Shown one piece after another: positions 4,484 to 34,274 of a stretch of DNA of 34,274 bases. The notes below the pieces were generated by a model. The model did not search any database and had not been told where the DNA came from. It saw nothing but the letters and a program-made list of their open reading frames with translations. A program made the translations under genes and the position numbers. The stretch comes from a virus (taxonomy: Duplodnaviria; Heunggongvirae; Uroviricota; Caudoviricetes), in the IMG/VR virus record IMGVR_UViG_2740892426_000003. One strand, written 5' to 3'. The number at the start of each line of letters is the position of its first letter. Positions within the stretch are counted from its first letter, which is position 1.

Positions 4484-4571
4484 TGCCAGTACCTTTATTC
4501 AGGTAATACTTACCCGTCGCACAGACACGTTGTTTATGCGTTGTGGTTGTGAGTCTTTTATTTACTGAGTG

Positions 4572-4802
4572 TTACGCGATTTTCTGCTTTTGCAGAAATT
4601 GCCCGCGTGTGGATAGCGGGATGTGTATCTTAGGATTCGGGCAACCGCTCGGTACCACTGTTCCCATCACGGTTTCCATTGCGATAAATGAAAACGAACA
4701 GTTAACGTTTTTGCACTGGTAATAGAGCTTACGTACCAGCGGTGACATATATTCGCTGCTGCGAATTATCGCCTTACCGTCGCAGTGTGGGCATTTCATC
4801 AT
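4572..4802 (-). CDS. ogr: Ogr/Delta-family zinc-finger late transcription activator
   Basis: MMKCPHCDGKAIIRSSEYMSPLVRKLYYQCKNVNCSFSF has the CxxC...CxxxxC zinc-finger of P2 Ogr. Start set at the ATG-ATG pair preceded by AAGGAGA; the ORF-track start at 4820 is probably an upstream overextension. Confidence 0.85.
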   Translation of the reverse strand: MMKCPHCDGKAIIRSSEYMSPLVRKLYYQCKNVNCSFSFIAMETVMGTVVPSGCPNPKIHIPLSTRGQFLQKQKIA

Positions 4803-4838
4803 GTCCTGTCTCCTTACCACTTTTAACTAACTGAAACA

Positions 4839-5045
4839 CTAACGCTTTTCGTTAACGGACTGACGAAATAGTGTGATGCCGTTCAAAAAAATGATTCTTG
4901 CCATGCTGGACATCGAACGGTTCTGATCCAGCGCTAATGCTTCCAGTTCCGCGATTTCAGCGGGGAGCAGGCGCATTGCCACCGGTTTGTTCGACATCAC
5001 CCCGCGAGGCGCTCTTGAGCGTAAGACGTTCTCATTTGTTTTCAT
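4839..5045 (-). CDS. small ribbon-helix-helix (CopG/Arc-like) DNA-binding protein, first gene of the leftward ogr-primase transcription unit
   Basis: 68-aa ORF 18 nt upstream of ogr. VAMRLLPAEIAELEALA...RSMSSMARIIF looks like an RHH beta-strand plus helices. Divergent from the HTH gene across an 80-bp control region. Start may be internal. Confidence 0.5.
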   Translation of the reverse strand: MKTNENVLRSRAPRGVMSNKPVAMRLLPAEIAELEALALDQNRSMSSMARIIFLNGITLFRQSVNEKR

Positions 5046-5125
5046 GGTGGTATATTGTGGTTATTAACATTACACAATCTATAATTCCCTCAATTGAGTG
5101 AATTGTCAATGGTAATTATATCCAA

Positions 5126-5461
5126 ATGAAAGAATTTGGCATCCGTTTGAAGGAAGAACGTATCCGACTTGGACTTGATCAAGACGGCTTTGGACAACTT
5201 GGGGGCGTGAAGAAAAACGCACAAAGCAACTATGAGAATGGGTTGCGCAAGCCGGACAGTGACTATCTTGCTGGCATAGCGGCAGCGGGAGTTGATGTTC
5301 TGTATGTTCTAACAGGCAACCGCACGCCTGTGGTTACGTTGTCCAGTAAAGAGAGTGTGTTGGTGGAAAACTATCGTTCTGCTACGCCAGAACACCAGTC
5401 CACCCTTGACACGGTTAGCGCTGCGCTTGCGCAACCGATGAATTGTCGAAAAGTACAATGA
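5126..5461 (+). CDS. XRE-family helix-turn-helix transcriptional regulator (possible prophage repressor)
   Basis: 111-aa ORF; N-terminal GIRLKEERIRLGLDQDGFGQLGGVKKNAQSNYENGLRKPDSDYLAGIAAAGVDVLYVLTG is a Cro/C1-type HTH. First gene of a three-gene plus-strand operon. Confidence 0.75.
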   Translation: MKEFGIRLKEERIRLGLDQDGFGQLGGVKKNAQSNYENGLRKPDSDYLAGIAAAGVDVLYVLTGNRTPVVTLSSKESVLVENYRSATPEHQSTLDTVSAALAQPMNCRKVQ

Positions 5462-5491
5462 TTTATTAAATTCAGCTTATTAGGAGTAATT

Positions 5492-6580
5492 ATGGCAAAT
5501 GTCGGCTTTTCTTTTGAGGGGGTGATGATTGAAAGAATTATTGCTCATCGAATCTTCCCAAGGTCTCCCGATAAGCAAATGGTTCCACCTAAGTTAAGTA
5601 ATCAGTTAATAACGTTAGAACAAGATGCTTTGGATGCACTACAGGTTCGTATAACAGAAGCCTTAGGTAATAAATCTCATGGCATTGAAATGTCTATCAC
5701 TGATACCGGTGATGATAGTTTTTTTGCACTGACAACGTCTGTACTACATGTTGAAGGCGAATCATTTATTAACGTATCTAAGCGATTGGCGCATAAGTTA
5801 ACAGAAGCTCAATATAGTGCGGGGAAGGTTTCCGGTGGTGTGTTAGTAATCATTACGGGAAAAATTGGTGAACAAGCCTGCCCATTCTTTGCTGTACTGC
5901 GTGCTGAAATGCAAAACGGATTTCGGACCAATGATACCCCAGAGAAAATAGCGATGGAGTATATTGCTGACTTATTACTTACACCAACTCAGCGGCTTTA
6001 TAAAATAGGAGTGTTGATTGAGTGTGAGTCAGGCCATGAATTGATTGATGGTCGTTGTGATACGCAATATTATCGTTCATTTTTATTTGATCACTTGATG
6101 ACATCGACGGAAACTAAAAATGCTGCGGGGTATTTTTACAGTGTTTTTCTTGGAATGGGGATCGAAAAATCCTCCAAGAAATTGACGCAGGATTTTTTTG
6201 AACATACTCGAAATTTCATTAATCAGGCTCCAGTTGATGAGGAAACTAAGTTTGATTTACACGAGTCATTACGTTCTGAACTGAGAAGTCAGAAAGCAAC
6301 TTTGAGTACCGCTTCGTTTGCTACGGAACATCTTCCTCAAGAATTACAGACGAGCTATCAGTCATTTATGGCTCAAAAAGGTTTTCCGCAGAATGCAGTG
6401 TCTAAAGATACTGATTATATTAAGAAAAAGCTTCGTCGTAGAAGTAAATTAGTGTTTACAAGCGATGTATGGATATCCATACCACCAGATCAAGTAAAAG
6501 AACTGGTACAGATTGAACAAACAGATGATGATGAGTCAACTACACTTAAAGTCAAAGGGCGGTTGAAAAGTCAAGAATGA
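5492..6580 (+). CDS. NA37/YejK (NdpA)-like nucleoid-associated-protein-family protein; candidate DNA-binding sensor or antitoxin component
   Basis: 362-aa ORF with RBS TAGGAG upstream. By-eye similarity to E. coli YejK recalled from memory: I..H.I near the N-terminus, a GG-hydrophobic stretch (SGGVLVIITG), FLGMG...DFF, and C-terminal F..KG...TL.VKG. Very AT-rich relative to flanking phage genes. Stop overlaps the next start (ATGA). Confidence 0.55.
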   Translation: MANVGFSFEGVMIERIIAHRIFPRSPDKQMVPPKLSNQLITLEQDALDALQVRITEALGNKSHGIEMSITDTGDDSFFALTTSVLHVEGESFINVSKRLAHKLTEAQYSAGKVSGGVLVIITGKIGEQACPFFAVLRAEMQNGFRTNDTPEKIAMEYIADLLLTPTQRLYKIGVLIECESGHELIDGRCDTQYYRSFLFDHLMTSTETKNAAGYFYSVFLGMGIEKSSKKLTQDFFEHTRNFINQAPVDEETKFDLHESLRSELRSQKATLSTASFATEHLPQELQTSYQSFMAQKGFPQNAVSKDTDYIKKKLRRRSKLVFTSDVWISIPPDQVKELVQIEQTDDDESTTLKVKGRLKSQE

Positions 6581-7578
6581 TGAGTATAGAGGATTTTAGA
6601 CGTTATCTGGTTGAAAACCATGCTGCTTATGAAGCATGGGGTAAACATATTGCGTCTGAAATCAATGCGGCTTTGATTGAACAACTTGGTGAAGGGGCCG
6701 CCCAGCTCTTCATCAAGGTACCACCCACTCCGAGAGTTAAAGGTATCGAGTCCGCATTAGGGAAGGTTGGTCGTAAAGGTTATAACAACCCTGTTCAGCA
6801 GATGACGGATCTCGTTGGCGTTCGTTTTGTCGTTTTACTTTCTGAAGATATTGAGACAATCTGTAAAATCATTCAGAATAATGAACAATGGATAGCTGTT
6901 GTTTCTAAAGATTATCAGGATGAAATAGAGGTAAACCCTAAACTATTTGATTATCAATCAAAGCATTTTGAAATAAGGCCAAAGATAAATAGCGTTATAT
7001 CGGGAGTTAATATTACAACTGATATGTGCTGTGAAGTACAAATTAGAACATTATTGCAGCATGCGTATGCAGAATTAGTTCATGATAGCGTTTATAAACC
7101 TGTTGGCCCCGTACCGAAAAAAGCGGAGCGCCAAATTGCGCGTAGTATGGCTTTGATGGAAACAACAGATGAATTATTTTGTAATACAATGCGGCTTTTA
7201 TGTGATACTAATAAACCAAGAAATGATTTTTTAAAGGAGTTAAAAGATTTTTATATAAATAAAATTGGGAGGCAGTATTTAAATCAGGAAGATAAAATAA
7301 ATTATTGTTTTTTAGATGAGTATAGGTCGTTTATACAAGAAGATCTTTTGACTAATCTAATCGACCTTCTTGATAAGAAAAAATATATATCATATAAAAT
7401 CCAACAAAGGGCTACTGCCAATCTTTTTTTTGCGCAGCCAGTGGTCATTTTTACTTACTGGCTGGCAATAAATGAAGACAGTAATAAATTACAGCAAGAA
7501 TGGCCGTTACCTGGATATTTGAACGAATTGAGAATGATTTTAAGTGATGTTGGTGTAAGTAGCGGTATTGGATATTAA
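6577..7578 (+). CDS. RelA/SpoT-homologue nucleotidyltransferase (small-alarmone-synthetase/toxSAS-like) with ~150-aa C-terminal extension
   Basis: 333-aa ORF. Synthetase-domain motifs are visible: PRVKGIESALGKVGRKG, TDLVGVRFVV, and CEVQIRTLLQHAYAE (the E-[IV]-Q-I-R-T...H...AE signature). C-terminal third is K/N-rich, AT-rich and unassigned. Translationally coupled to the upstream gene. Confidence 0.8.
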   Translation: MMSIEDFRRYLVENHAAYEAWGKHIASEINAALIEQLGEGAAQLFIKVPPTPRVKGIESALGKVGRKGYNNPVQQMTDLVGVRFVVLLSEDIETICKIIQNNEQWIAVVSKDYQDEIEVNPKLFDYQSKHFEIRPKINSVISGVNITTDMCCEVQIRTLLQHAYAELVHDSVYKPVGPVPKKAERQIARSMALMETTDELFCNTMRLLCDTNKPRNDFLKELKDFYINKIGRQYLNQEDKINYCFLDEYRSFIQEDLLTNLIDLLDKKKYISYKIQQRATANLFFAQPVVIFTYWLAINEDSNKLQQEWPLPGYLNELRMILSDVGVSSGIGY

Positions 7579-8681
7579 TCTTCCAGCCCCAACTCACACT
7601 CCACCGCCGTCCCATACCCACTGCTGTTATCCAACGTATGCACACACCGCGTAATCACCCACGCGGTGCCGTCAATCTCCGCCTTAAACCCCTTAACCTG
7701 CAGTGGTAATTCCGGGAACAAATCGGGCCGTCCACGCGCAAGATTCAGGCTGAACGTTGCCGCGCCGCGCTGTAATTGCTCCCACGCGCTTTTTGCCGCC
7801 CGGTAGGCGTTATTTTTGTTGGCATAGGTGTGGCGCAACACCTTGATATTTCCCTCTTCGCCTACCATCACGTTATCGGCGTTGAATGAGGCGTCTGATG
7901 GGGGAGATTCCGTTGGTTGCGTTTGCGGACGATTTTTCCGTGTCTTGCGCTTCACGTCAGTGGACTGCTTTTTAGCCTGCCGCGTATCCAGCCAGTAGGC
8001 CGTAACGCCGGTATAGGCTTCCCTGTCCGCGATGCTGAACCGGTGACTGTCGCCGTCCTCGCGGGTAATGGTTGCGACCGGCAGCGGCTTTCCGCTGGCG
8101 CTTTTACCGGAACCTGTCGGCATCAGTAACAGAGCATCATTTTTCACGCAGGCGATAGCGCCGTGCATTTGCGCCAGCCGGGTCAGGAAGGAGGCATCGG
8201 ATTCGTTAGTCTGGTCAACGTGCTCAATGGCGATCCCAGCCAGCTCGCCGCTGACGGTTGATTCCAGCTTATGGCGCGCCGCCACGGTTTGCACAATCGC
8301 GCCCAGCGTCACATCATGGTAGCTCTGTTCCCGTTTAACGTTCAGCGAATCGCGGAAATCGGCGCTGCGGGCGCGGAGGCTGAGTACGTCCGGTGCGCCG
8401 CTGTGCTCCAGTTCGTCCACGGTGAAGACATTCTGGTGCATCACGCCGTCACCCTTCCAGCCCAGAGAAACCGTTAGCTTTTCGCCCTTTGCCGGAAACG
8501 CCAGCAGGCCGTCGCTGTCGTCCAGTTCGAGCTGCAGTTCGTCGGCCTCAAAGCCCCGGTTGTCGGTGATACGCAGGCTGATTAAGCGGTTGTCCAGATT
8601 CCGCGTAATGTCCTTACCATTCAGCACCACGCTGTACTCCGGCTGCGGTTGGGCGTTTAAGAGTGCGTTTAACATCGTCAT
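7575..8681 (-). CDS. D: tail protein D (late control gene D, P2 gpD-like)
   Basis: 368-aa ORF at the 3' end of the E-T-U-D tail operon; gene order and length as in P2. Confidence 0.85.
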   Translation of the reverse strand: MTMLNALLNAQPQPEYSVVLNGKDITRNLDNRLISLRITDNRGFEADELQLELDDSDGLLAFPAKGEKLTVSLGWKGDGVMHQNVFTVDELEHSGAPDVLSLRARSADFRDSLNVKREQSYHDVTLGAIVQTVAARHKLESTVSGELAGIAIEHVDQTNESDASFLTRLAQMHGAIACVKNDALLLMPTGSGKSASGKPLPVATITREDGDSHRFSIADREAYTGVTAYWLDTRQAKKQSTDVKRKTRKNRPQTQPTESPPSDASFNADNVMVGEEGNIKVLRHTYANKNNAYRAAKSAWEQLQRGAATFSLNLARGRPDLFPELPLQVKGFKAEIDGTAWVITRCVHTLDNSSGYGTAVECELGLED

Positions 8682-9106
8682 AGTCCGTCTACCATCGTGA
8701 TGATGTCGCCCAGCAAGCCACCCAGCTTCGGCGGATCGACACGTTTTAACGCCAGCGTAAACTCAATGCGCCGGGCCGCACCGTCGCGAAAAAAGACGCT
8801 CCGGGTGACGTTCAGACTCTCAATCACAAACCAGCCATGCAGCGAGCCGGTGCCTTCAATCAGCGGCCACGCCATCCCCTGATCGGCCATCTTACGCAGG
8901 AAAAACAGGGTAAATCGCCCGCCGGTCAGTTCCGGCAACAGCACGCCGTTTAGCGTAATGGTTTCGTCACCCACGCCGATAAACTGGCTGGCCGGACGTA
9001 GCCCCACGCGGGAACTGGCAGGATGCCGCCACGCTACGGCGTGCTGCATATCCTGATAGGGCAGGGTTTTCAGGCTGAAGACGAACAGCCCCAGTACCAT
9101 CATCAT
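8678..9106 (-). CDS. U: tail protein U (P2 gpU-like)
   Basis: Start set at the internal ATG-ATG-ATG (MMMVLGLFVFSLKT...) preceded by TAAGGAG and overlapping the T stop; the ORF-track start at 9214 would run into gene T. Confidence 0.85.
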   Translation of the reverse strand: MMMVLGLFVFSLKTLPYQDMQHAVAWRHPASSRVGLRPASQFIGVGDETITLNGVLLPELTGGRFTLFFLRKMADQGMAWPLIEGTGSLHGWFVIESLNVTRSVFFRDGAARRIEFTLALKRVDPPKLGGLLGDIITMVDGL

Positions 9107-9116
9107 CTCATTCTCC

Positions 9117-11963
9117 TTAGTCGATATCGCGCAGGCTGCTGCGGGTTCTGGCGGCATTCTGCCGTTCGCGCTTGTCCAGTTCCTGCGCCACCAGTTTCGC
9201 CAGTTGTTGTTCATTCATGCCGGGAGCGGCGTGGATGTGAATAGTGACTGGCCCGCCGCTGGCTGCCGGTGCAGAAAGGGATGCTGGCGCGAGCGGGGCG
9301 CGATTATCCGGCAGGGCGGCGATAGGGGGCATGGCGACAGCGGCGGCGCTGAGCGTCAGCCCGGCACCGGCGGCGATTAACTGCTTCGAGAGTTGCCCTA
9401 CGCTGGCCAGCGCCGTTTGCGTGTTGTCCTCAATCCCGACCGCCAGCCCGTCCACGGTATAGCGGCCCATTTCGGCGAACACCCGCGACGGTGAATGAAT
9501 ACCGAGCTTGTCCTTAAACCAGTTGGAAATATTGCTGCCCAGATCCAGCACGCCCTGTTTAATCGCTTCCCATTTGGCAAAGATCCCCTGTTTCAGCCCT
9601 TCCATGATATTGCCGCCGATCTCGGTAAAGCGGGTGGACAGGTTACTGAAACTGTTCAGAACGTTATCCCAGACTGTGGTAAACACCGTGGACAGGTTCC
9701 AGTTGGTGAAAAAAGCAATGATGGCATTCAGGGCAGTGCTGACGGTGGTTTTAATTCTCTCCCAGATACCGGTGGCGGTAGTGGTAATGCCCGTCCATAT
9801 TTGTCCCAGAAATGCCACCACGCTGTTCCACGCCTCAACGGTCGTCGCTTTGATAGTATCCCAGTGCTGGTAAATCAGACCGGGCAGCGTCCAGTTCAGC
9901 AGGATATTCACCAGTCCGTCCCAGCAGCCGAAGAGAAACGTTTTAATCCCTTCCCAGACGGCGCTGGTTGTGGCTTTTACGCTGTTCCACGCATCGCTGC
10001 ATACCTGCTTAAAACTATTCCAGAGCGCGGCGAACTTCGGCCCCAGCCAGTCCCAGTTACTCCAGATCCAGATGGCGGCACCGGCGATCAGCGCAATCAC
10101 CACCAGAATCGGGTTAGCCATCATTGCGCGACCCAGCCAAATTACCGCTTTTCCCGCGCCTTTAAAGGCATTCGCCAGCAGCCCCAGCGCGCTGCTGCCC
10201 TTAATACCGAGCACCGACAGGCTGAGTTTTAGCGCCGCCATCGGGCCGAGGATACCGGCAAGCGTCAGGGATATGCCTCCGAGCGCCACGGCGAACGCGC
10301 CGATCGCCATGCCGATTTTCACCAGCGTGGCGGTTAGCTGCGGGTTGGCCTTTACCCACTGGCCGAGACGTTCCGCCATTCGTCCCAGCCATTCGGTAAG
10401 CTGTTTTAAATCCGGTGCAACGGTTTCACCAATGGCGGCCAGCGAGTTGGTAAAGGTACCGGAGGCCGCTTCCCATAAGTTTTTCAGGGTGCCTAGCTGT
10501 TCATTAACTCGCTGCTGCAGCGACGCCTGCGCGCTCATTTTCCCCTGAACGTCGTTATATCCGGCTGAGCCTTTCTCAATCAACAGGGAGATAACCTGCA
10601 GCGTCTCGGCATCGTCGCCGTAGAGGGATTTGATAATGCCGAGGCGGGTTTCCGTATTCAGGTCTTTCAGCTTATCCAGTTGCTTAAACATGTTATCCAG
10701 CCCGCCAAATTCCCCTTTGCCGTCGCTGAAACTAAGCTGAATATTCTGGCCCATTTTTGCCAGTTCATTGTTTACCTCTTTAATGTTGTCGGTATCCATG
10801 GATTTCTGGAATACCTTGCGGAAGGCGTTCCCGGCTGCGTCGCCGCGCATCCCGGCCTGATCGGCCATTACCAGCAACGGAGCCAGTGACTTAGCGCCCT
10901 CCAGCCCCTTGACTTTGATGATATCCATCGCGGCGGACATTTTGGCGAAGCCGTTGAGCATATTGTTGGCGTCCACGCCGAGGTAGTAGCTTTTCTGGAT
11001 CACGTCCATCAGCGACATCATGTCTTTTTCTGATGTACGGGTCGCATCCTGCATTTTGGCGGCAAACTCGGCAGCGGCTTCGGAAGGCATCTGGAGCTGC
11101 ACACCCAGATAAGCGGTCGCCTCACCCAGTCCGCCGAGAATGGACTGCGCCGACATCCCCTGCCTGCGTAACATAGTCATCATGTTCTGGAAGTCGGCAG
11201 TGGTGCCGGGGAGCCTGTCGCCCAGCGTCACGGCCAACTGGTTGATGGCTTCAAATTCGGGCAGGACGCCACTGGCGCCCATCATGGAAACCTTGAGCTG
11301 CGTTGAGGCGTTTTCCAGTTCGGCATAGGCTTTTACCGGAACCGCCAGTGTCATTCCGGTCGCGGTGCCGGTTGCCATCATGCCAGCGCCAAAGCCCGCC
11401 AGCTTGTTGCGGGCATCGATAGTTCCCGCGTAGCTGGATTTGGCGGAGTTCATCTTTTTCTGCTGCTGATTTAGGCGATTGAGTAACCGTTCTTGTTCTT
11501 TTAATTTTGTGTTATAGCGTTCAGTCTCCGTTTTTATTCTGACGGTAGCCTTTTCCCCCGCCTGCGTAGAAATACCCAGTCGATAGAGTTCCGCCCGTAA
11601 TTTGCCCATCTGAGTTATTTCTTGCTGTTGCTTATGTTCGAGCTGGCTGACTGTTCGCCACTGTCGTTCCAGCGCCTTTGTCTGCTTTTGTGTGGGGTTA
11701 TCCATTGCAGACATTTCGCGCGTCATCATCTGGGCTTTGAGACGAGCTTGATCCAGCTCTGTACCAAGCTGTTTAGTTGAACTCTTTAAACTATTAAATG
11801 TGGCTAATTGACCACTGGCCTGATTCAGTGCTTTGAGCTGGTTCCGTGTTTCTTTTAACGCACGGGCGGTTTCACCGCTGCCCTGCGTGACGGCTTTTAG
11901 CGGGCGGGTGATTTTATCTACGGCGCTGAGTAGTACCTGTAAACGAAGGTTTTGTGTGCTCAT
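9117..11963 (-). CDS. T: tail tape measure protein (P2 gpT-like)
   Basis: 948-aa ORF immediately downstream of E/E', with coiled-coil N-terminal half and hydrophobic central segments; start overlaps the E' stop (ATGA). Confidence 0.9.
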   Translation of the reverse strand: MSTQNLRLQVLLSAVDKITRPLKAVTQGSGETARALKETRNQLKALNQASGQLATFNSLKSSTKQLGTELDQARLKAQMMTREMSAMDNPTQKQTKALERQWRTVSQLEHKQQQEITQMGKLRAELYRLGISTQAGEKATVRIKTETERYNTKLKEQERLLNRLNQQQKKMNSAKSSYAGTIDARNKLAGFGAGMMATGTATGMTLAVPVKAYAELENASTQLKVSMMGASGVLPEFEAINQLAVTLGDRLPGTTADFQNMMTMLRRQGMSAQSILGGLGEATAYLGVQLQMPSEAAAEFAAKMQDATRTSEKDMMSLMDVIQKSYYLGVDANNMLNGFAKMSAAMDIIKVKGLEGAKSLAPLLVMADQAGMRGDAAGNAFRKVFQKSMDTDNIKEVNNELAKMGQNIQLSFSDGKGEFGGLDNMFKQLDKLKDLNTETRLGIIKSLYGDDAETLQVISLLIEKGSAGYNDVQGKMSAQASLQQRVNEQLGTLKNLWEAASGTFTNSLAAIGETVAPDLKQLTEWLGRMAERLGQWVKANPQLTATLVKIGMAIGAFAVALGGISLTLAGILGPMAALKLSLSVLGIKGSSALGLLANAFKGAGKAVIWLGRAMMANPILVVIALIAGAAIWIWSNWDWLGPKFAALWNSFKQVCSDAWNSVKATTSAVWEGIKTFLFGCWDGLVNILLNWTLPGLIYQHWDTIKATTVEAWNSVVAFLGQIWTGITTTATGIWERIKTTVSTALNAIIAFFTNWNLSTVFTTVWDNVLNSFSNLSTRFTEIGGNIMEGLKQGIFAKWEAIKQGVLDLGSNISNWFKDKLGIHSPSRVFAEMGRYTVDGLAVGIEDNTQTALASVGQLSKQLIAAGAGLTLSAAAVAMPPIAALPDNRAPLAPASLSAPAASGGPVTIHIHAAPGMNEQQLAKLVAQELDKRERQNAARTRSSLRDID

Positions 11964-14204: not shown

Positions 14205-14963
14205 TTAATTCAGGATAATCAATTCTGATGTGGTGCTGGCTGGCTTTCCACCTACAGTATAGCGAATCCCTACCGTTGAAAATGTCAGGCCGTGGAAGAT
14301 ATCGCGCATTTCCGGGATGTCATTAACCGAGATAATCATCCGGCCCTGCATGGTGCGCGCCAGCTCTGCCATACGCTGGTACTGCTCAAGGCCAAATGGT
14401 ACGCCGTAGCCTTCGGTTTTCCAGTATGGCGGGTCGCAGTAGAACAGGGTATGCGGGCGGTCATAGCGGCGAATACAGTCGACCCAGTCCAGATTTTCAA
14501 TACAGACGCGCGCCAGCCGCAGATGGGCGGCGGATAAATCCTCTTCCATACGCAGCAGGTTCAGGCGCGGCGGTGAGGTGGTGGCGGTACCGAACGTGCG
14601 GCTTTCCACCTTACCGCCGAATGCCAGCTTTTGCAGATAGTAGAAGCGCGCCGCGCGCTGGATGTCGGTCAGCGTTTCTTCCGGGGTGATCTGGAGCCAG
14701 CGGTACATTTCGCGACTGACCAGCGACCATTTAAACTGGCGGACAAACTCTTCTAAATGGTGCTGGAGTACGCGGTAGAGGTTGGTAACGTCACCATTGA
14801 TATCGTTCAGCACCTCGGCCTGAGCGGGCTGTTTCATAAAGAACAACGCCGCCGCCCCGCAGAACGGTTCAACGTAGCAGCGGTGTTTGGGAAACAGCGG
14901 CAGAATGTGTTTTGCCAGCCTGCGCTTACCGCCGATCCACGGAATAATGGGTAACGTATTCAT
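14205..14963 (-). CDS. dam: Dam-family N6-adenine DNA methyltransferase (orphan, inside the late tail-fibre operon)
   Basis: 252-aa ORF with SAM-binding FCGAAALF and catalytic DPPY (YCDPPYW). Sits between G and FI, the position of Z/fun in P2. Confidence 0.85.
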   Translation of the reverse strand: MNTLPIIPWIGGKRRLAKHILPLFPKHRCYVEPFCGAAALFFMKQPAQAEVLNDINGDVTNLYRVLQHHLEEFVRQFKWSLVSREMYRWLQITPEETLTDIQRAARFYYLQKLAFGGKVESRTFGTATTSPPRLNLLRMEEDLSAAHLRLARVCIENLDWVDCIRRYDRPHTLFYCDPPYWKTEGYGVPFGLEQYQRMAELARTMQGRMIISVNDIPEMRDIFHGLTFSTVGIRYTVGGKPASTTSELIILN

Positions 14964-24777: not shown

Positions 24778-24866
24778 AGCATTAGCCTCTTTAATGTTGT
24801 GGTCAGAGGCCCGTCGGTGTTGGTAGCACCTGCGGGCTTCGTTCGTTTAAGGGTTGCAAAACATCA

Positions 24867-24918
24867 CGTAATTGCGATGTAATTACAACTACATCATTCT
24901 AAGGATTTTGTAATTACA
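24867..24918 (+). promoter_or_regulatory. operator-like palindromes (2 x TGTAATTACA plus a CGTAATTGCG half-match) upstream of the RHH gene
   Basis: Perfect 10-bp palindromes at about 24878-24887 and 24909-24918, 31 bp centre to centre; the second abuts the ATG. Confidence 0.55.
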
Positions 24919-25089
24919 ATGTCAAGTGAAAAGGCTAAAACAGATCAGTACCAACTTCGTCTTGCTCATGAATTTAGAAAGCAGCTTGAAGAACAGGCTC
25001 GTAAAGATGGAGATACCTCTCTCGCAACATGGATAAAACGCGTTTTGCGTAAGGAACTTCAGTCACGAGGTATTGAACCCAAAGGATAA
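24919..25089 (+). CDS. Arc/MetJ-type ribbon-helix-helix DNA-binding protein (56 aa; below the ORF-track size cutoff)
   Basis: Hand translation MSSEKAKTDQYQLRLAHEFRKQLEEQARKDGDTSLATWIKRVLRKELQSRGIEPKG; the strand-then-two-helices pattern resembles Arc repressor. Confidence 0.65.
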   Translation: MSSEKAKTDQYQLRLAHEFRKQLEEQARKDGDTSLATWIKRVLRKELQSRGIEPKG

Positions 25090-28518: not shown

Positions 28519-29346
28519 TTAACAGTCGGTTTTCAGGTCGGTGTTGCCACCGGTGGCAGGCTGGCGCGATGGTGTGGCCGGTTGCTTTGCAAGCTGAGTT
28601 TTCAGCGTGGAATAATCGGCCTGTAGCTGCTGATGCTGCGTTTGCAGTTCAGACAGCTCAGCGCGAATTTGGTCGACCTGTTCGCTACAGAACGTCGCTA
28701 CTTCCTCCACCGCCAGATGCACGTCGTCCCGTTGCTGGTCGTCGTGGTTCTGCTTTTTACTTAACAGCGCCTTGATGCGGGTAAACAGCGATTCGCCGCT
28801 GCTTTCCTCCACTTCTTCAAACTCCAGTTCAATCTCTTCTGCCACGCTGAAAATGTTCTTCGGCGAGCGCTTACGCGCCGCCAGCGGGTTGCTCTGCGCG
28901 CTGGCGCAGAAGGAGAGCATTTCGGTGCCGAGACTGGCCGGATCGTCGGTGACTGCCAGCCCGACCAGATAGGCTTTGCCTGTATCGGCAAATTTCGGAT
29001 CGACTTCCACCGAGGTATAAACCTTCTGCCCTTTGCGGTTCATTTCGACCAATGAATCCGTTGGGGCCAGACGTGCCAGCAGCGCCAGTTTGCCTTTCAG
29101 GGGGCCGTCTTCGGCGATCTCTTCTTTCTTCACCATCGCCACGTCGCCGTAGCGCTGGAACGGGCCGTCCGGCAGGATGCCTTTCAGGTGCTCCAGATTA
29201 ATGCGCGCGCCGTACACTTTTGGGCTGTATGTATCGGCCATTTGCTCGATCCACTGGCGTTCAATAGTGCGCTTGTCGCAGGTTGCGCCTTCTACGGCGA
29301 TACGCACCCATTTAGAGAGCAGTTTTTTCTTTGGCTTTTTGTCCAT
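28519..29346 (-). CDS. O: capsid scaffolding protein O
   Basis: 275-aa ORF upstream of N, first gene of the O-N-M-L operon, divergent from P. Confidence 0.85.
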   Translation of the reverse strand: MDKKPKKKLLSKWVRIAVEGATCDKRTIERQWIEQMADTYSPKVYGARINLEHLKGILPDGPFQRYGDVAMVKKEEIAEDGPLKGKLALLARLAPTDSLVEMNRKGQKVYTSVEVDPKFADTGKAYLVGLAVTDDPASLGTEMLSFCASAQSNPLAARKRSPKNIFSVAEEIELEFEEVEESSGESLFTRIKALLSKKQNHDDQQRDDVHLAVEEVATFCSEQVDQIRAELSELQTQHQQLQADYSTLKTQLAKQPATPSRQPATGGNTDLKTDC

Positions 29347-29501: not shown

Positions 29502-31286
29502 ATGCCGCCAGACATCGAAAAACATCTGCTTGCCCTTCAGGATGAAGATCCACGCCGCAAAGCCCGCTATCTGTACTGGCAGGGTTTTCGCATCGCGCGG
29601 ATCGCCGAACTGTTGGGGGTGAAAGTTACCACGCTGCATAGCTGGAAGCGGCGCGACGGCTGGGATGAATCCGCCCCGCTGGAGCGGGTGACGGCGGTGA
29701 CCGAGGCGCGTCTGATCCAGCTCACGGTGAAGGAAAATAAAGAGGGGAAGGATTTTAAGGAGATCGATTTGCTCTGGCGGCAGATGGAGCGCGGGGCAAG
29801 GGTTGAACGCTATCAGCAGGGAGGCAATGAGGTCGACCTGAATCCTGCTCTTGCGAAGCGTAACGCCGGGCCGCGCAGACAGCCGGAAACCAACCATATC
29901 AGCGAGGAGCAGGCGGAGAAGCTGAAACAGCTATTTCTGGACGGGCTGTATCCGCACCAGAAACACTGGTACCGCGCCGGACTGGAACACCGTATCCGCG
30001 ATATCAACAAGTCGCGCCAGATTGGGGCGACGATGTTCTTTGGGCGGGAAGGGTTTATGGATGCGGTGGAAAGTGGGCGCAACCAGATCTTTCTCTCTGC
30101 TTCCAAAGCGCAGGCGCACCAGTTCCGCCAGTACATTGTCGATTTTGCTCGTGAGGCGGATGTTGAGCTGAAAGGCGAAGTCATTCACCTGCCGCATAAT
30201 GATAGCCGGATGTATTTTCTCGGCACTAATGCCCGCACCGCCCAGACCTATCATGGCAACCTGTATCTGGATGAATACTTCTGGATACACCGCTTTCTGG
30301 AACTGCGCCGTAACGCGGCGGGGATGGCCAGCCAGAAGCGCTGGCGGCAAACCTACTTCTCCACGCCGTCCAGCATCACCCATGAAGCCTATAAGTTCTG
30401 GACAGGGCAACTGTTCAACAAGGGCAGGCCGAAGAGCGAACAGATTCGACTGGATATCAGCCATCGGGCGCTGTCGGCAGGGCGGTTGTGTGAAGACGGC
30501 CAGTGGCGGCAAATCGTCACCGTTGAGGATGCCATCAATCAGGGTTATGACCTGTTCGACCTTGAGCAACTCAGGCTGGAGAACTCGCCGGAAGAGTTCG
30601 CCAACCTGTTTATGTGCCAGTTTATTGACGATACCGCATCGGTATTCCCGCTCAGCATGTTGCAGGGTTGCATGGTCGATAGCTGGGAAGTCTGGGACGA
30701 CTACAAGCCGTTTGCCCTGCGTCCGCTCGGCGAACGCTCGGTATGGGTGGGCTACGATCCGGCGTTAAGCGGCGACAGCGCCGGATGCGTGGTGGTCGCG
30801 CCGCCGGTCATTGAGGGCGGCAAGTTTCGGGTAATTGAAAAGCACCAGTGGCACGGGATGGACTTCGCGGCGCAGGCGGAGAATATCCGCAAAATTACCG
30901 AGCGCTATAACGTGACGTACATCGGCATTGACGTGACCGGTATCGGCCACGGCGTGCATCAACTGGTGAAACAGTTCTTCCCGGCAGTGCAGGCATTCTC
31001 TTATTCCCCGGAAGTGAAACAGCGTCTGGTGCTGAAAACGCTGGACGTTGTCCGTAAACACCGACTGGAGTTTGACGCTGGATGGACGGATCTGGCGCAG
31101 GCATTTATGGCGATCCGCAAAACCCTGACCCCGTCCGGGCGTCAGGTGACCTTCGAGGCCAGCCGTTCGGAAGAAGTCTCCCACGCGGATCTGGCATGGG
31201 CGTGCATGCACGCCATTATCAATGAACCACTGGAAAGCTCTGGCGGCGCGAACAGCGGGCGGGGCTTAATTAAGGTGTATGGATGA
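29502..31286 (+). CDS. P: terminase large (ATPase) subunit P
   Basis: 594-aa ORF divergent from O; size and position as P2 gpP; stop overlaps the Q start (ATGA). Confidence 0.9.
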   Translation: MPPDIEKHLLALQDEDPRRKARYLYWQGFRIARIAELLGVKVTTLHSWKRRDGWDESAPLERVTAVTEARLIQLTVKENKEGKDFKEIDLLWRQMERGARVERYQQGGNEVDLNPALAKRNAGPRRQPETNHISEEQAEKLKQLFLDGLYPHQKHWYRAGLEHRIRDINKSRQIGATMFFGREGFMDAVESGRNQIFLSASKAQAHQFRQYIVDFAREADVELKGEVIHLPHNDSRMYFLGTNARTAQTYHGNLYLDEYFWIHRFLELRRNAAGMASQKRWRQTYFSTPSSITHEAYKFWTGQLFNKGRPKSEQIRLDISHRALSAGRLCEDGQWRQIVTVEDAINQGYDLFDLEQLRLENSPEEFANLFMCQFIDDTASVFPLSMLQGCMVDSWEVWDDYKPFALRPLGERSVWVGYDPALSGDSAGCVVVAPPVIEGGKFRVIEKHQWHGMDFAAQAENIRKITERYNVTYIGIDVTGIGHGVHQLVKQFFPAVQAFSYSPEVKQRLVLKTLDVVRKHRLEFDAGWTDLAQAFMAIRKTLTPSGRQVTFEASRSEEVSHADLAWACMHAIINEPLESSGGANSGRGLIKVYG

Positions 31287-32263
31287 ATAACGCAATGGCT
31301 TTCACCTTCGGTGAACCCGAAGCCCTGCTGGACAGGCGGGAAATACTGAACTATCTGGAGTGCGTAGACTTTGGCAAATGGTATGCGCCGCCGGTGGATT
31401 TTAATTCGCTGGCGCTGTCGTTCCGCGCTTCGGCGCATCATACCAGCCCGATCTGCGTGAAGCGCAATGTGCTGGTTGGTACCTTCATACCTCATCCGTT
31501 GTTGACCCGGCAGGCGTTCAGCCGCCTTGCGCTGGACTATCTGGTGTTCGGTAATGCCTATCTGGAGCGGCAGGATAACCGGCTGGGCCAGCCGTTAACG
31601 CTGGTGCCTGCGCTGGCGAAGTATGTCCGGCGCGGCAAGGCGCTGGACAGCTATTTCTTTGTTCAGCCCGGTAAAGTGGATCATGAGTTTGCGTCGGGCA
31701 GTATCGGCCACCTGCTGGAGCCGGATATCAATCAGGAAATCTACGGCCTGCCTGAATACCTCTCTGCGCTGAACGCGGCATGGCTGGATAACTCCGCCAC
31801 GCTGTTTCGCCGTCGCTACTACAAGAACGGCAGTCATGCCGGTTTCATCCTCTACCTGAGCGACCCTGCCCATAACGAGGCGGATATTGGGGCGTTACAG
31901 GAGGCGCTGGCGAACAGCCGTGGCCCCGGCAACTTCCGCAATCTGCTGATGTATCTGCCGAACGGCAAACCGGACAGCGTAAAGGTGATCCCGATTGGCG
32001 AGGTGGCGGCGAAAGATAACTTCTCCGATATCAAGAGCGTCAGCCGTGACGACCAGTTAGCCGCGCACCGGGTACCGCCCGCGCTCATGGGCGTGGTACC
32101 GAGTAACGCCGGTGGCTTCGGCGACGCTATCAAAGCGGCGAAGGTATTCAACTGCAATGAGATCGAGCCGCTGCAGGAACGCTTTAAAGAACTGAACGAC
32201 TGGCTGGGGCTGGAGGTTATTCGCTTCAAAAAGTACCGCCTTGCCGACGACGATTCAGAGTAA
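31283..32263 (+). CDS. Q: portal protein Q
   Basis: 326-aa ORF; AFTFGEPEALLDRREILNYLECV...LLEPDINQEIYGLPEYLSALNAAWL...ELNDWLG matches recalled P2 gpQ. Confidence 0.9.
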   Translation: MNNAMAFTFGEPEALLDRREILNYLECVDFGKWYAPPVDFNSLALSFRASAHHTSPICVKRNVLVGTFIPHPLLTRQAFSRLALDYLVFGNAYLERQDNRLGQPLTLVPALAKYVRRGKALDSYFFVQPGKVDHEFASGSIGHLLEPDINQEIYGLPEYLSALNAAWLDNSATLFRRRYYKNGSHAGFILYLSDPAHNEADIGALQEALANSRGPGNFRNLLMYLPNGKPDSVKVIPIGEVAAKDNFSDIKSVSRDDQLAAHRVPPALMGVVPSNAGGFGDAIKAAKVFNCNEIEPLQERFKELNDWLGLEVIRFKKYRLADDDSE

Positions 32264-32308
32264 CCCCAACAACGACCAGCTCCCCATCAGCGCCACCACG
32301 CGCCATTC

Positions 32309-32332
32309 AGCCCGCTTCCTGCGGGTTTTTTT
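32309..32332 (+). terminator. rho-independent terminator after the P-Q operon
   Basis: Stem CCCGC/GCGGG with TTCCT loop followed by a run of 7 T, about 45 nt after the Q stop. Confidence 0.5.
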
Positions 32333-32582
32333 ACGCCTTCTCACCGCCAGAATCCCCAGCCAGCACCGCCAGCGCGCGGTTGTGACCCCGCCACGCCTGC
32401 GCAGTAAATAGATCGCTTTTTTTGCACTGGTGCGTAAGCGTCGGAGCGGGCCATAACGGGAGGGCGTGGTCGGGTTGCAGGTGCAGCAGAATCATGCGGA
32501 TTTATGCGCCCTGTGTATGCGGCAGAGACGATCGGGAGGACAATGCCACGATCCTTTTGGTATTTTTGGATCGCCTGTCGGG

Positions 32583-32864
32583 AAAAGGTAACCTCAGTAA
32601 TTGGCAGTAAAAATAATGCTTATTTTATTGTTTATAAAAGAGAAATTTAGTTACCCCTAAAAGGTAATCTGAGGTAACCCAAAAGGTAACCTGTTTTATA
32701 TTTTCATATAAATCATAACGTTACCAATTAGAAGAGATCACTATTATAAAAGGTAACCTGATTACTCTTTGGTTACCAAAAGATTACCTTTCTCTGTTTT
32801 TGAAAAATCCTTTTTATTCATTAAGTTATTTTGATTTTTCGTTGCAGGTTACTAAGGTTACCTT
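32583..32864. repeat. iteron array: about 6 full and 3-4 partial copies of AAAGGTAACCT (both orientations) in AT-rich DNA
   Basis: Direct copies at about 32583, 32659 (AAAGGTAATCT), 32681 and 32748; inverted copies at about 32780 and 32854; partial cores at about 32671, 32719, 32770 and 32845. Some spacings are about 22 bp. Confidence 0.7.
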
Positions 32865-33135
32865 TTTCCGAAGCCCCCACGGACTTTGGTATATATAGAG
32901 AGGTTAAAAAGCAGTCATTATGTTTGCCAGCTATTTACTTCCCATTCTTCCACTGGCCAGCATGTTAATATGCCCGGTAGTGATAACTCGTTGCCGTTGG
33001 GTTACTTTCTTCTGTGGACGGTAAAATTGACGGTAAATTGGGTAGCGTGTCTCAATTTAGACTATTAAAATCAAGTAATTAAAGTGATTGTATATAATCG
33101 AGTGGGAATGATTTGACTCTGCACTATGAATGAAC

Positions 33136-33165
33136 AAAACCCTCTGTTACTACAGAGGGTTTTTT
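33136..33165 (-). terminator. hairpin terminator (potentially bidirectional) downstream of the exported coiled-coil protein gene
   Basis: 8-bp stem ACCCTCTG/CAGAGGGT with 6-nt loop, flanked by an A-run upstream and T-run downstream. Confidence 0.55.
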
Positions 33166-33203
33166 ATACTCACGAATCATAGGATTGAAGTTACTAACAT
33201 CGA

Positions 33204-33743
33204 TTAATTAAACCAGCTATCTGATTTATTCTCTTCTGCTTTGCCCACGCTTTTCATCAGATCGCGACCGCCTTCAGTCATATTCCTGTTTGCGTCAGCT
33301 TCAGATTGCACCACATCGGTTTGCGCAGCTTTGTGCTTCAGTTCCTGATCGATAAATTCGTTTTCTCGCTTAACGCGGGCTTCTTCTTTCGCCAGCGCCA
33401 GTTTTTGCTTCTGAATCTCTAAGCTGCGTAGCTCATCTTCATAACTTTGATCGCGTTTTTTGTCCGCAGTGGCTTCGGCGTCCAGTTTATCCTGACGAGC
33501 TTTCTTATTCGCCGCTGCCGTTGCCGCTCTTTTATTAGCCGCGGCCTGGGCGTTTGCGCGACGTTGCTTCTCTTGCTGGATTTCCCTGTTGCGCTCCGCG
33601 ACCCATTCGTCATGCTGCCTTTGCTCTTCATTTTTACCTTGCTGTTCCGCTTCTGCGACAGCCGAGAGTTGATCCTGCAATGATGAGGCGATAGCCGGAT
33701 AGCTTAAGGAGGCTAAGATGGCGCAAAGAAAAACTTTCTTCAT
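33204..33743 (-). CDS. exported (signal-peptide) charged coiled-coil protein, function unknown
   Basis: 179-aa ORF with N-terminal signal peptide and highly charged K/E/A/Q-rich helical region; unclear whether phage cargo or host. Confidence 0.6.
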   Translation of the reverse strand: MKKVFLCAILASLSYPAIASSLQDQLSAVAEAEQQGKNEEQRQHDEWVAERNREIQQEKQRRANAQAAANKRAATAAANKKARQDKLDAEATADKKRDQSYEDELRSLEIQKQKLALAKEEARVKRENEFIDQELKHKAAQTDVVQSEADANRNMTEGGRDLMKSVGKAEENKSDSWFN

Positions 33744-33758
33744 GACTCCTCCTGATCA

Positions 33759-34274
33759 TTAGCTCTTTTCAGGACATTTCGTATTTGGCTGAATACGCGT
33801 TTCGTTATACGTCGTGGTAATAACAACGGCTAAACCTGTCGTAAACTGGCACTCTTTACCCACCTGGGTGGAGGTATACACTTTGGTGCCTTCCTTATAC
33901 GTTAGAGAAACACCTTCCACTAAGGTTTTATCATTCACCATAGAACCCGCTGCCGCGCCAACAGCTCCGCCGCCAACTGCACCTGCCGTCGTTCCGGAAT
34001 TGCTGCCAGACCCCACGTTGTGGCCGATTACACCGCCAGCGACTGCACCAATAAGCGCGCCGAAGGCTTGTGCATTTCGTTTATTTTGGGCGTTGTCTAC
34101 GGCAACTTTTGCGGGAAGAATGGAAATAATATTAACGGTTTTAGTTTCTTGTTTGGTATTCAGTTGATCGGTTTGATAAACATCGGCGGCATGATCATCA
34201 GCATTTGACTGGCATCCTGCCAGAGTGAATGACGCTAACATTGCCACAGGCAGAAGACATTTTTTAAATTTCAT
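33759..34274 (-). CDS. glycine-zipper lipoprotein (predicted outer-membrane lipoprotein)
   Basis: 171-aa ORF starting at the last codon of the window; lipobox LAGC and a Gly-zipper segment (GALIGAVAGGVIGHNVG...GAVGGGAVGAAAG). Confidence 0.7.
   Translation of the reverse strand: MKFKKCLLPVAMLASFTLAGCQSNADDHAADVYQTDQLNTKQETKTVNIISILPAKVAVDNAQNKRNAQAFGALIGAVAGGVIGHNVGSGSNSGTTAGAVGGGAVGAAAGSMVNDKTLVEGVSLTYKEGTKVYTSTQVGKECQFTTGLAVVITTTYNETRIQPNTKCPEKS

Follow-up and report, generated by a model that had tools for sequence, protein, structure and literature searches.

Phage P2 replicates by a rolling-circle mode, which is started by gpA at a nick site located inside gene A. A large branch of the P2-like phages has gpA replaced by a fused primase-helicase, and no origin for this branch was reported in the literature searched. 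Initiators with a helicase of their own are described for the SaPIs, whose Rep proteins are self-loading helicase-initiators that bind penta- or hexanucleotide iterons through a C-terminal winged helix. The SaPI ori consists of 6–12 such iterons placed around an AT-rich center, with at least two per side in opposite directions, and in SaPI5 the primase and Rep are fused into one protein (PMC9371898). Phage P4 likewise possesses a fused Toprim primase-helicase, alpha, and needs two clusters of short iterons in both orientations, ori and crr, of which crr is located directly beside attP. Among the P2-like phages, the record of phiCTX (NC_003278) annotates a “region3; containing R3 repeats” at 35100–35390 together with two IHF sites, between attP and cosR. 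The record assigns no function to this region, and no statement on the phiCTX origin or on the function of the R3 repeats was found in the literature searched.

The DNA analyzed here (the window) is a 34,274-nucleotide stretch of the IMG/VR record IMGVR_UViG_2740892426_000003, which contains a P2-like prophage that uses the 3′ end of guaA as its integration site. Its features are collected in Table 1. A first-pass annotation, made from the letters of the DNA, had pointed to a repeat array near the right end of this stretch and had read it as either a replication origin or a cluster of integrase arm-type sites. It had also placed the array between cos and the int-alpA-primase module of the circular phage form, which agrees with the locations obtained for cos and the att core (attR); the array lies between the two, on the non-portal side of cos and 186 bp away from it. 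The att core repeat, for which the same annotation had proposed a search at both prophage ends, was found as the duplicated guaA end, and attL was read in the same prophage of E. coli strain CEC15. Almost all E. coli genomes match the window only from approximately 33064–33084 onward. This prophage type is rare, since it was detected in 4 of 5426 complete E. coli genomes at 95–99% identity. The guaA site itself is an integration hotspot: in other E. coli strains it is occupied by an arsenic-resistance island that includes a recombinase, and a 111-bp segment of Stx phage TL-2011b (41244–41356), which is probably its attP, is 91% identical to the guaA-yfgI spacer (window 33090–33200).

Table 1. 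Positions of the array, its component sites, and the surrounding prophage and host features in the window.
Feature	Position	Strand	Basis or remark
P4/epsilon15-type integrase (int)	1–1200
Arm-motif copies within the int 5′ end	258–267; 301–310	+; −	Intragenic
AlpA	1204–1470
DUF7673	1442–1819
Zn-finger and Toprim primase fused to AAA+ helicase, with predicted C-terminal winged helix, 884 aa	1829–4483	−	Pfam Toprim_2; proposed initiator
Ogr, Cox-like RHH protein, HTH repressor			Also in the left-end gene set of the prophage
Terminase	29502–31286		Right end
Portal	31283–32263		Right end
cos cohesive-end sequence GGCGTGGCGGGGTCACAAC	32379–32397	−	Alignment to the P2 cos region; outside the array
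Whole iteron array	32578–32871	.	Motif counts, shuffles, in-register alignment with four other phages and 116 unique IMG/VR arrays
Outer doublet, cos side: AAAGGTAACC TCA GTAAT, preceded by GGGAA; cores 32588, 32597	32584–32601	+	Inverted repeat, alignment
AT-rich spacer, 80–82% AT; candidate unwinding segment	32600–32645	.
Inner block 1: inverted site with core 32650–32654 (−), then direct cores 32664, 32674, 32686 (+)	32646–32692	+
Central AT-rich segment, 70–78% AT; lone − site at 32720–32724	32693–32748	.
One-mismatch IHF-like site AATCATAACGTTA	32711–32723		Within the central segment
Inner block 2, mirror of block 1: core 32753 (+), then 32761, 32772, 32783 (−)	32749–32791	−	Inverted repeat, alignment
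AT-rich spacer, up to 85% AT; candidate unwinding segment	32795–32840	.	First conserved IHF position of relatives
Outer doublet, att side: AAAGGTAACC TTA GTAAC on −, then TTTTTCCGA on +; cores 32848, 32857 (−)	32845–32865	−	Inverted repeat, alignment
Two candidate integrase arm-type sites, GGACGGTAAA and TGACGGTAAA, 12 bp apart	33016–33037	+	Left of core; direct repeat
Perfect IHF consensus	33069–33081	+	Beside att core
att core, duplicated guaA 3′ end GAGTGGGAATGA	33100–33111	+	Prophage right boundary; as in epsilon15
Host genes yfgI and yfgH	33204–34274

The repeat cluster itself was confirmed by motif counting and by shuffles. Over approximately 294 bp it contains 13 GTAAY-core sites, comprising four exact copies of AAAGGTAACCT (32584+, 32682+, 32749+, and 32855−), two copies with one mismatch (32660+ and 32781−), and seven partial sites. 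The count of at least six full 11-mers given in the first-pass annotation thus holds at up to one mismatch but is slightly overstated, because only four copies are exact. When up to one mismatch was allowed, AAAGGTAACCT was matched six times within 32584–32865 and once elsewhere in the 34-kb window, for which the whole-window expectation is 0.28. Dinucleotide-preserving shuffles of the same AT-rich 331 bp contained 1.9 GTAAY cores on average and at most 9, and none of 2000 reached the observed 13. The array is hence statistically real. It is also under constraint; compared with the same prophage in CEC15, it differs at 4 of 293 positions (1.4%) with no core affected, while the flanking non-coding DNA exhibits 3.9–7.9% differences.

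Both orientations are represented, with six cores on the plus strand and seven on the minus strand, as had been claimed together with the partial cores. The 22-bp spacing that had been noted for some copies is real (32660 to 32682), but another site is located in between at 32674, so that the true spacing of the direct sites in the inner block at 32646–32692 is 10–12 bp. The sites are arranged as a dyad centered near 32725, in which an outer doublet is followed by an inverted site plus a triplet and by an AT-rich center, and then by the mirror image of this order. At the nucleotide level the palindrome score of the array was 61, which is not above the shuffles (mean 53, maximum 64), indicating that the symmetry resides in the site orientation only. 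The AT-rich stretch reported among the repeats was verified as spacers reaching 80–85% AT, and the region was verified as non-coding, since no ORF of at least 60 aa lies inside the array. No Rfam family or promoter-like site was detected in 32264–33204, and no good DnaA box was found.

By its core sites, its in-register layout, its position, and its partner gene, the window array is a member of the same family as the phiCTX region3 and an orthologue of its R3 repeats. The sequence of region3 is an array of AAAGGTAAT sites, which shares with the window the GGTAAY core, a span of approximately 291–295 bp, the site order and orientation, the outer inverted doublets (GGAAAAAGGTAAY ... TTACCTTTTCC), and the place between attP and cos at approximately 170–190 bp from cos. 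The partner primase-helicase is also the same, which is orf37 in phiCTX with 49% identity. In contrast, the two phages differ in their host (E. coli for the window) as well as in the integrase and att site, which are an epsilon15/P4-type int and guaA in the window. The preferred core is GGTAAC(C) in the window and GGTAAT in phiCTX, and the IHF consensus sites are weaker in the window. An in-register alignment over approximately 295 bp was obtained for the arrays of the window, phiCTX, Ralstonia RSY1, Stenotrophomonas Smp131, and Halomonas 4908 (vB_HboP_4908), which share the outer doublets GGAAAAAGGTAAYnnnnGGTAAY ... RTTACCnnnnRTTACCTTTTCC and the two inner blocks. The repeats are therefore kept at the same position in related phages. 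The number of GGTAAY-core sites is 13 for the window (32588–32861), 12–14 for phiCTX, and 8–11 for RSY1, Smp131, and Halomonas 4908.

A search pattern derived from one block, GGTAAYN6GTAAYN6GTAAYCNNRTTAC, matched the window and more than 120 IMG/VR viral contigs among the matches listed, and a P2-type portal was located nearby in most of the 80 loci checked. BLAST of the array against phage and E. coli collections returned only the same prophage (the four genomes mentioned above) besides matches to cos and the host flank, which shows that BLAST does not detect such arrays. The array is conserved and widespread. Phages that carry arrays of this motif have Escherichia, Pseudomonas, Ralstonia, Stenotrophomonas, and Halomonas as their annotated hosts, and 116 unique IMG/VR arrays (among the matches listed) share a mean identity of 51%, with the GTAA cores and two IHF consensus sites as the conserved columns. 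A cos-like motif was found 370–432 nt from the start of the block in 101 of 121 loci (among the matches listed), which corresponds to an array-cos separation of 165–225 bp. The record of vB_BpuM-ZY1 contains genes only and has no att-cos interval, and certain contigs that encode the protein end at int; these were uninformative.

The protein encoded at 1829–4483 is 45–58% identical to the primase-helicases of phiCTX, RSY1, Smp131, and Halomonas 4908. When all ORFs of the window were compared with 11 genomes using tblastn, the primase-helicase was the only one present in all four complete array-bearing genomes and in none of the four array-less P2-like genomes (P2, RSA1, phiE12-2, and ST79); this sample comprises few complete genomes (5 versus 4), which are not independent in phylogenetic terms. 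The array and this gene are co-inherited in these genomes. The pair RSY1 and RSA1 is particularly close, with identities of 99.2% for terS (gpM), 96.5% for terL, and 96.1% for the portal, and their DNA remains homologous until shortly before the replication gene. RSY1 carries the primase family of the window and the array, whereas RSA1 carries a primase that is not detectably related and has no such array. Just 3′ of its own primase, RSA1 contains eight copies of CCGTGGAAA (L091, 35038–35420). A distant relative, phi3, encodes a primase-helicase that is 33% identical to the window protein. [quoted passage not shown] The iteron clusters of RSA1 and phi3 are candidate origins as well. The phi3 core resembles the type-1 iteron of P4, TGTTCACC.

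One locus, L130, was considered as a case of a gpA phage with an array, but this was rejected. A tRNA-like att site is located 290 bp past its array, ahead of the gpA gene, with an Rfam tRNA score of 24.9 bits that does not reach the family threshold (29), and host mutS follows the gpA/integrase block, so that this block is best read as a separate neighboring element. This 6.5-kb block (3600–10086) is situated beside a phiCTX-like prophage. Its genes code for a short replication protein of the GPA family (581 aa), an integrase, and an HTH protein, and it may represent a satellite-like element of small size.

A structural model was obtained for residues 500–884 of the window protein (pLDDT 82, pTM 0.73). 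The best PDB matches found by Foldseek were SCCmec Cch (5dgk, E = 1e-8), SaPIbov1 Rep (8tch), and DNA-bound PriRep1 (7pds), so that the C-terminal half matches the SaPI Rep/PriRep/Cch proteins by fold. The last 100 residues of the model (approximately 784–884) exhibited the helix-strand pattern of a winged helix, which is the domain by which the SaPI Reps bind their iterons. A sequence-profile search of the primase-helicase family against solved structures gave no significant helicase match and detected the Toprim domain only. Within the predicted winged helix, six proteins that accompany GGTAAY arrays have in common the segment K-[T/E]-S-[R/K]-x-x-K-F as well as a V-N pair, and both are altered in phi3 and in the E. 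coli phage ESSI2_ev239, whose arrays have another core. The altered residues could possibly be specificity determinants for the iteron core. The ESSI2_ev239 array retains the frame GGAAAAA-site-site ... site-site-GTTTTCC over approximately 280 bp with an AT-rich center. Its primase-helicase is 52% identical to that of the window, and a region-by-region identity comparison revealed no divergent block in it, so that the specificity argument depends on a few residues compared between six and two related sequences. The ESSI2_ev239 record (L086, NC_049392) carries the Nextera adapter CTGTCTCTTATACACATCT... and poly-A at its end (29131–29203), and its start (1–306) seems to lie inside a gene; both ends resemble artefacts of assembly, and part of the genome is probably missing.

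The layout of the window array can be compared with those of the known initiator systems. As in a SaPI ori, short iterons flank an AT-rich center in opposite orientation, and their number is 13 instead of 6–12. The window array is longer, abuts cos, and belongs to a family with conserved IHF sites; it is also part of a full P2-like phage of Gram-negative hosts, whereas the SaPIs are satellites. A further difference is the position relative to the initiator gene. The SaPI ori is located directly 3′ of rep, an arrangement that is present in phi3 and absent in the window, where int and attP separate the array from the primase-helicase gene; in the prophage the two are 28 kb apart at opposite ends. 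With respect to P4, to which the first-pass annotation had suggested a comparison, the likeness extends to architecture but not to sequence. Both proteins are fused Toprim primase-helicases with an EGYATA-type motif (EGIFDAIA in the window), and the cis sites of both are short iteron clusters in both orientations. However, alpha aligns with the window protein over the Toprim domain only (hhalign probability 78%), the P4 iteron differs from the window motif, the layouts differ, and the window has one GGTAAY cluster instead of ori and crr. The array thus resembles, by analogy, an ori of the SaPI Rep/Cch/P4 alpha kind in architecture and is not a member of it by sequence; the function proposed for it would be alike.

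Taken together, the array is probably the cis-acting replication origin of this P2-like prophage, or at least the region where its initiator is loaded, as judged from the DNA sequence and the protein model. The origin for the primase-helicase was the best supported of the functions suggested at the outset, by the gene co-inheritance, the conserved layout, and the fold matches, all of which are comparative and structural inference. We infer the binding of the protein to the sites, the melting, and the origin activity from these observations. Upon excision and circularization, approximately 2.3 kb would lie between the array and the 3′ terminus of the primase-helicase gene. The C-terminal winged-helix domain would bind the GGTAAY hexamers, and the mirror-image site sets flanking the AT-rich center would position two oppositely oriented hexamers of the protein, which is probably assisted by IHF bending. 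The AT-rich DNA would then melt to allow self-loading of the helicase, and its own Toprim domain could prime bidirectional theta replication.

Several observations count against this assignment. The array is not adjacent to its presumed gene in the manner of a SaPI ori, and the nearly fixed distance between it and cos in 101 of 121 loci could point to a role linked to cos. The ESSI2_ev239 array has the core CRTCACA despite the lack of a specially divergent region in its protein. Two further loci, L076 and L060, encode proteins that are 99% identical, yet their arrays contain different mixes of the iteron variants GGTAATAT and GCGATAT. These variants occupy homologous positions and are point changes of one family, G-Y-R-ATAT, so that they neither support nor refute binding. 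Lastly, the IHF sites conserved in the relatives are weak in the window; the central position, which is strongly conserved in the profile of 116 arrays and annotated in phiCTX, is represented at best by a site with one mismatch (32711–32723).

The other function that had been suggested at the outset, namely a cluster of integrase arm-type sites, did not stand. Such sites, or else binding sites for the AlpA excisionase, would make the array an extended P arm of attP. The array is indeed located on the P-arm side of the att core in AT-rich DNA, arm sites of the lambda type are also short repeated protein-binding sites in both orientations accompanied by IHF sites, and GGTAA is common to both motifs (AAAGGTAAC versus GACGGTAAA). 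However, a motif with a different sequence, TGACGGTAAA, was found on both arms, and its repeats are the likely arm-type sites as judged from sequence. At attL of the same prophage in CEC15, TGACGGTA(A/T)A occurs three times between the guaA stop and the int start and twice inside the int 5′ end, while the AAAGGTAACCT/AAAGGTAACC motif is absent from this P′ arm. The epsilon15 record annotates integrase binding sites as GTGACGGTAT in equivalent places, including the inside of the int 5′ end, and the N-terminus of the epsilon15 integrase, which is the arm-binding domain, is very similar to that of the window integrase. The distance from the array to the att core is 235–520 bp, and in Smp131 the array is 2.3 kb from attP with three genes in between. 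The same array also stands beside unrelated integrases and att sites. With tblastn (E = 1e-4, at least 40% of the length), the window int had no match in phiCTX, Smp131, or Halomonas 4908 and a match of 25% in RSY1, all of which keep GGTAAY, and the attachment site is guaA here but a tRNA gene or tRNA 3′ fragment in phiCTX, RSY1, Smp131, and the loci L076 and L130. An arm-site or AlpA role is accordingly highly improbable. A role in packaging is distinctly unlikely for other reasons. Here the array would be an accessory site for packaging or cos function, comparable to lambda cosB with IHF, to which the small terminase subunit or a different packaging factor would bind. The lambda cosB also combines short repeated sites and IHF in AT-rich DNA beside cos; the array always abuts the cos region at the near-constant distance described above, and no insertion was seen between the two, while morons are found between cos and the portal and between the array and attP. 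This constancy can be accounted for if the gap is taken up by functional cos DNA and tolerates no insertion. Unlike cosB, the array does not track the terminase. RSA1 has a small terminase subunit 99.2% identical to that of RSY1 and a homologous cos-proximal 200 bp, and the array is present in RSY1 only, on which ground a cosB-like terminase-binding region was rejected. The array is also missing from P2, where the old gene and cosR are separated by only approximately 195 bp, and from the Burkholderia gpA phages phiE12-2 and ST79, and no cos motif was detected close to the phi3 analogue.

It would be unlikely, but less so than a packaging role, that the array is a platform for another DNA-binding protein, for instance a host nucleoid protein or a small phage protein. 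Such a platform would have a function apart from initiation, possibly as a crr-like enhancer or a silencer, or in the protection or circularization of the DNA end. The primase-helicase is a putative partner of the array, and the ESSI2_ev239 and L076/L060 observations are not fully explained by the model built on it. The array is moreover located at the genome end opposite the portal gene, which in P2 is the end packaged last and injected first. Against such a platform, no other phage gene is common to all array-bearing genomes and missing from the array-less ones; some array-bearing phages lack the repressor, Cox-like, or DUF7673 genes, and a host factor would not explain the loss of the array upon replication-module swap. 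There is finally a slim chance, comparable to that of a packaging role, that the array is a dual element of origin and genome end, in which initiation by the primase-helicase, at the end away from the portal gene, would be coupled to cos cleavage, circularization, or packaging. The constant 165–225 bp that separate array and cos in more than 100 phages would then express this coupling instead of a gap that happens to be filled. Such an element has not been described for any P2-like phage.

If the array is the replication origin, a function would be given to the phiCTX R3 repeats, and the primase-helicase branch of the P2-like phages would possess a compact two-part replicon composed of the array and one gene. 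The self-loading initiators of the SaPI Rep/Cch type would then extend to tailed phages of Gram-negative hosts. The annotation of this prophage is improved by the positions assigned to cos, the att core, the prophage boundary, and the likely integrase arm sites. Three other parts of the window were noted. Between the repressor and gpD (5492–7578), an NA37-type nucleoid-associated protein and a RelA/SpoT-domain protein are encoded as cargo unrelated to phage growth, and the two may constitute a module of anti-phage defence or of alarmone type. Three to four GTAATTACAA-type repeats (24860–24925), which look like an operator, occupy a non-coding gap between late genes and closely precede a small ORF whose start is near 24920. 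Stretches with 60–65% identity to the ORF at 14205–14963 (−) occur in locus L130 and in the genome of Halomonas phage 4908; in each of these, the portal gene has a DNA adenine methylase gene as its neighbor (of the D12 class by Pfam at L130).
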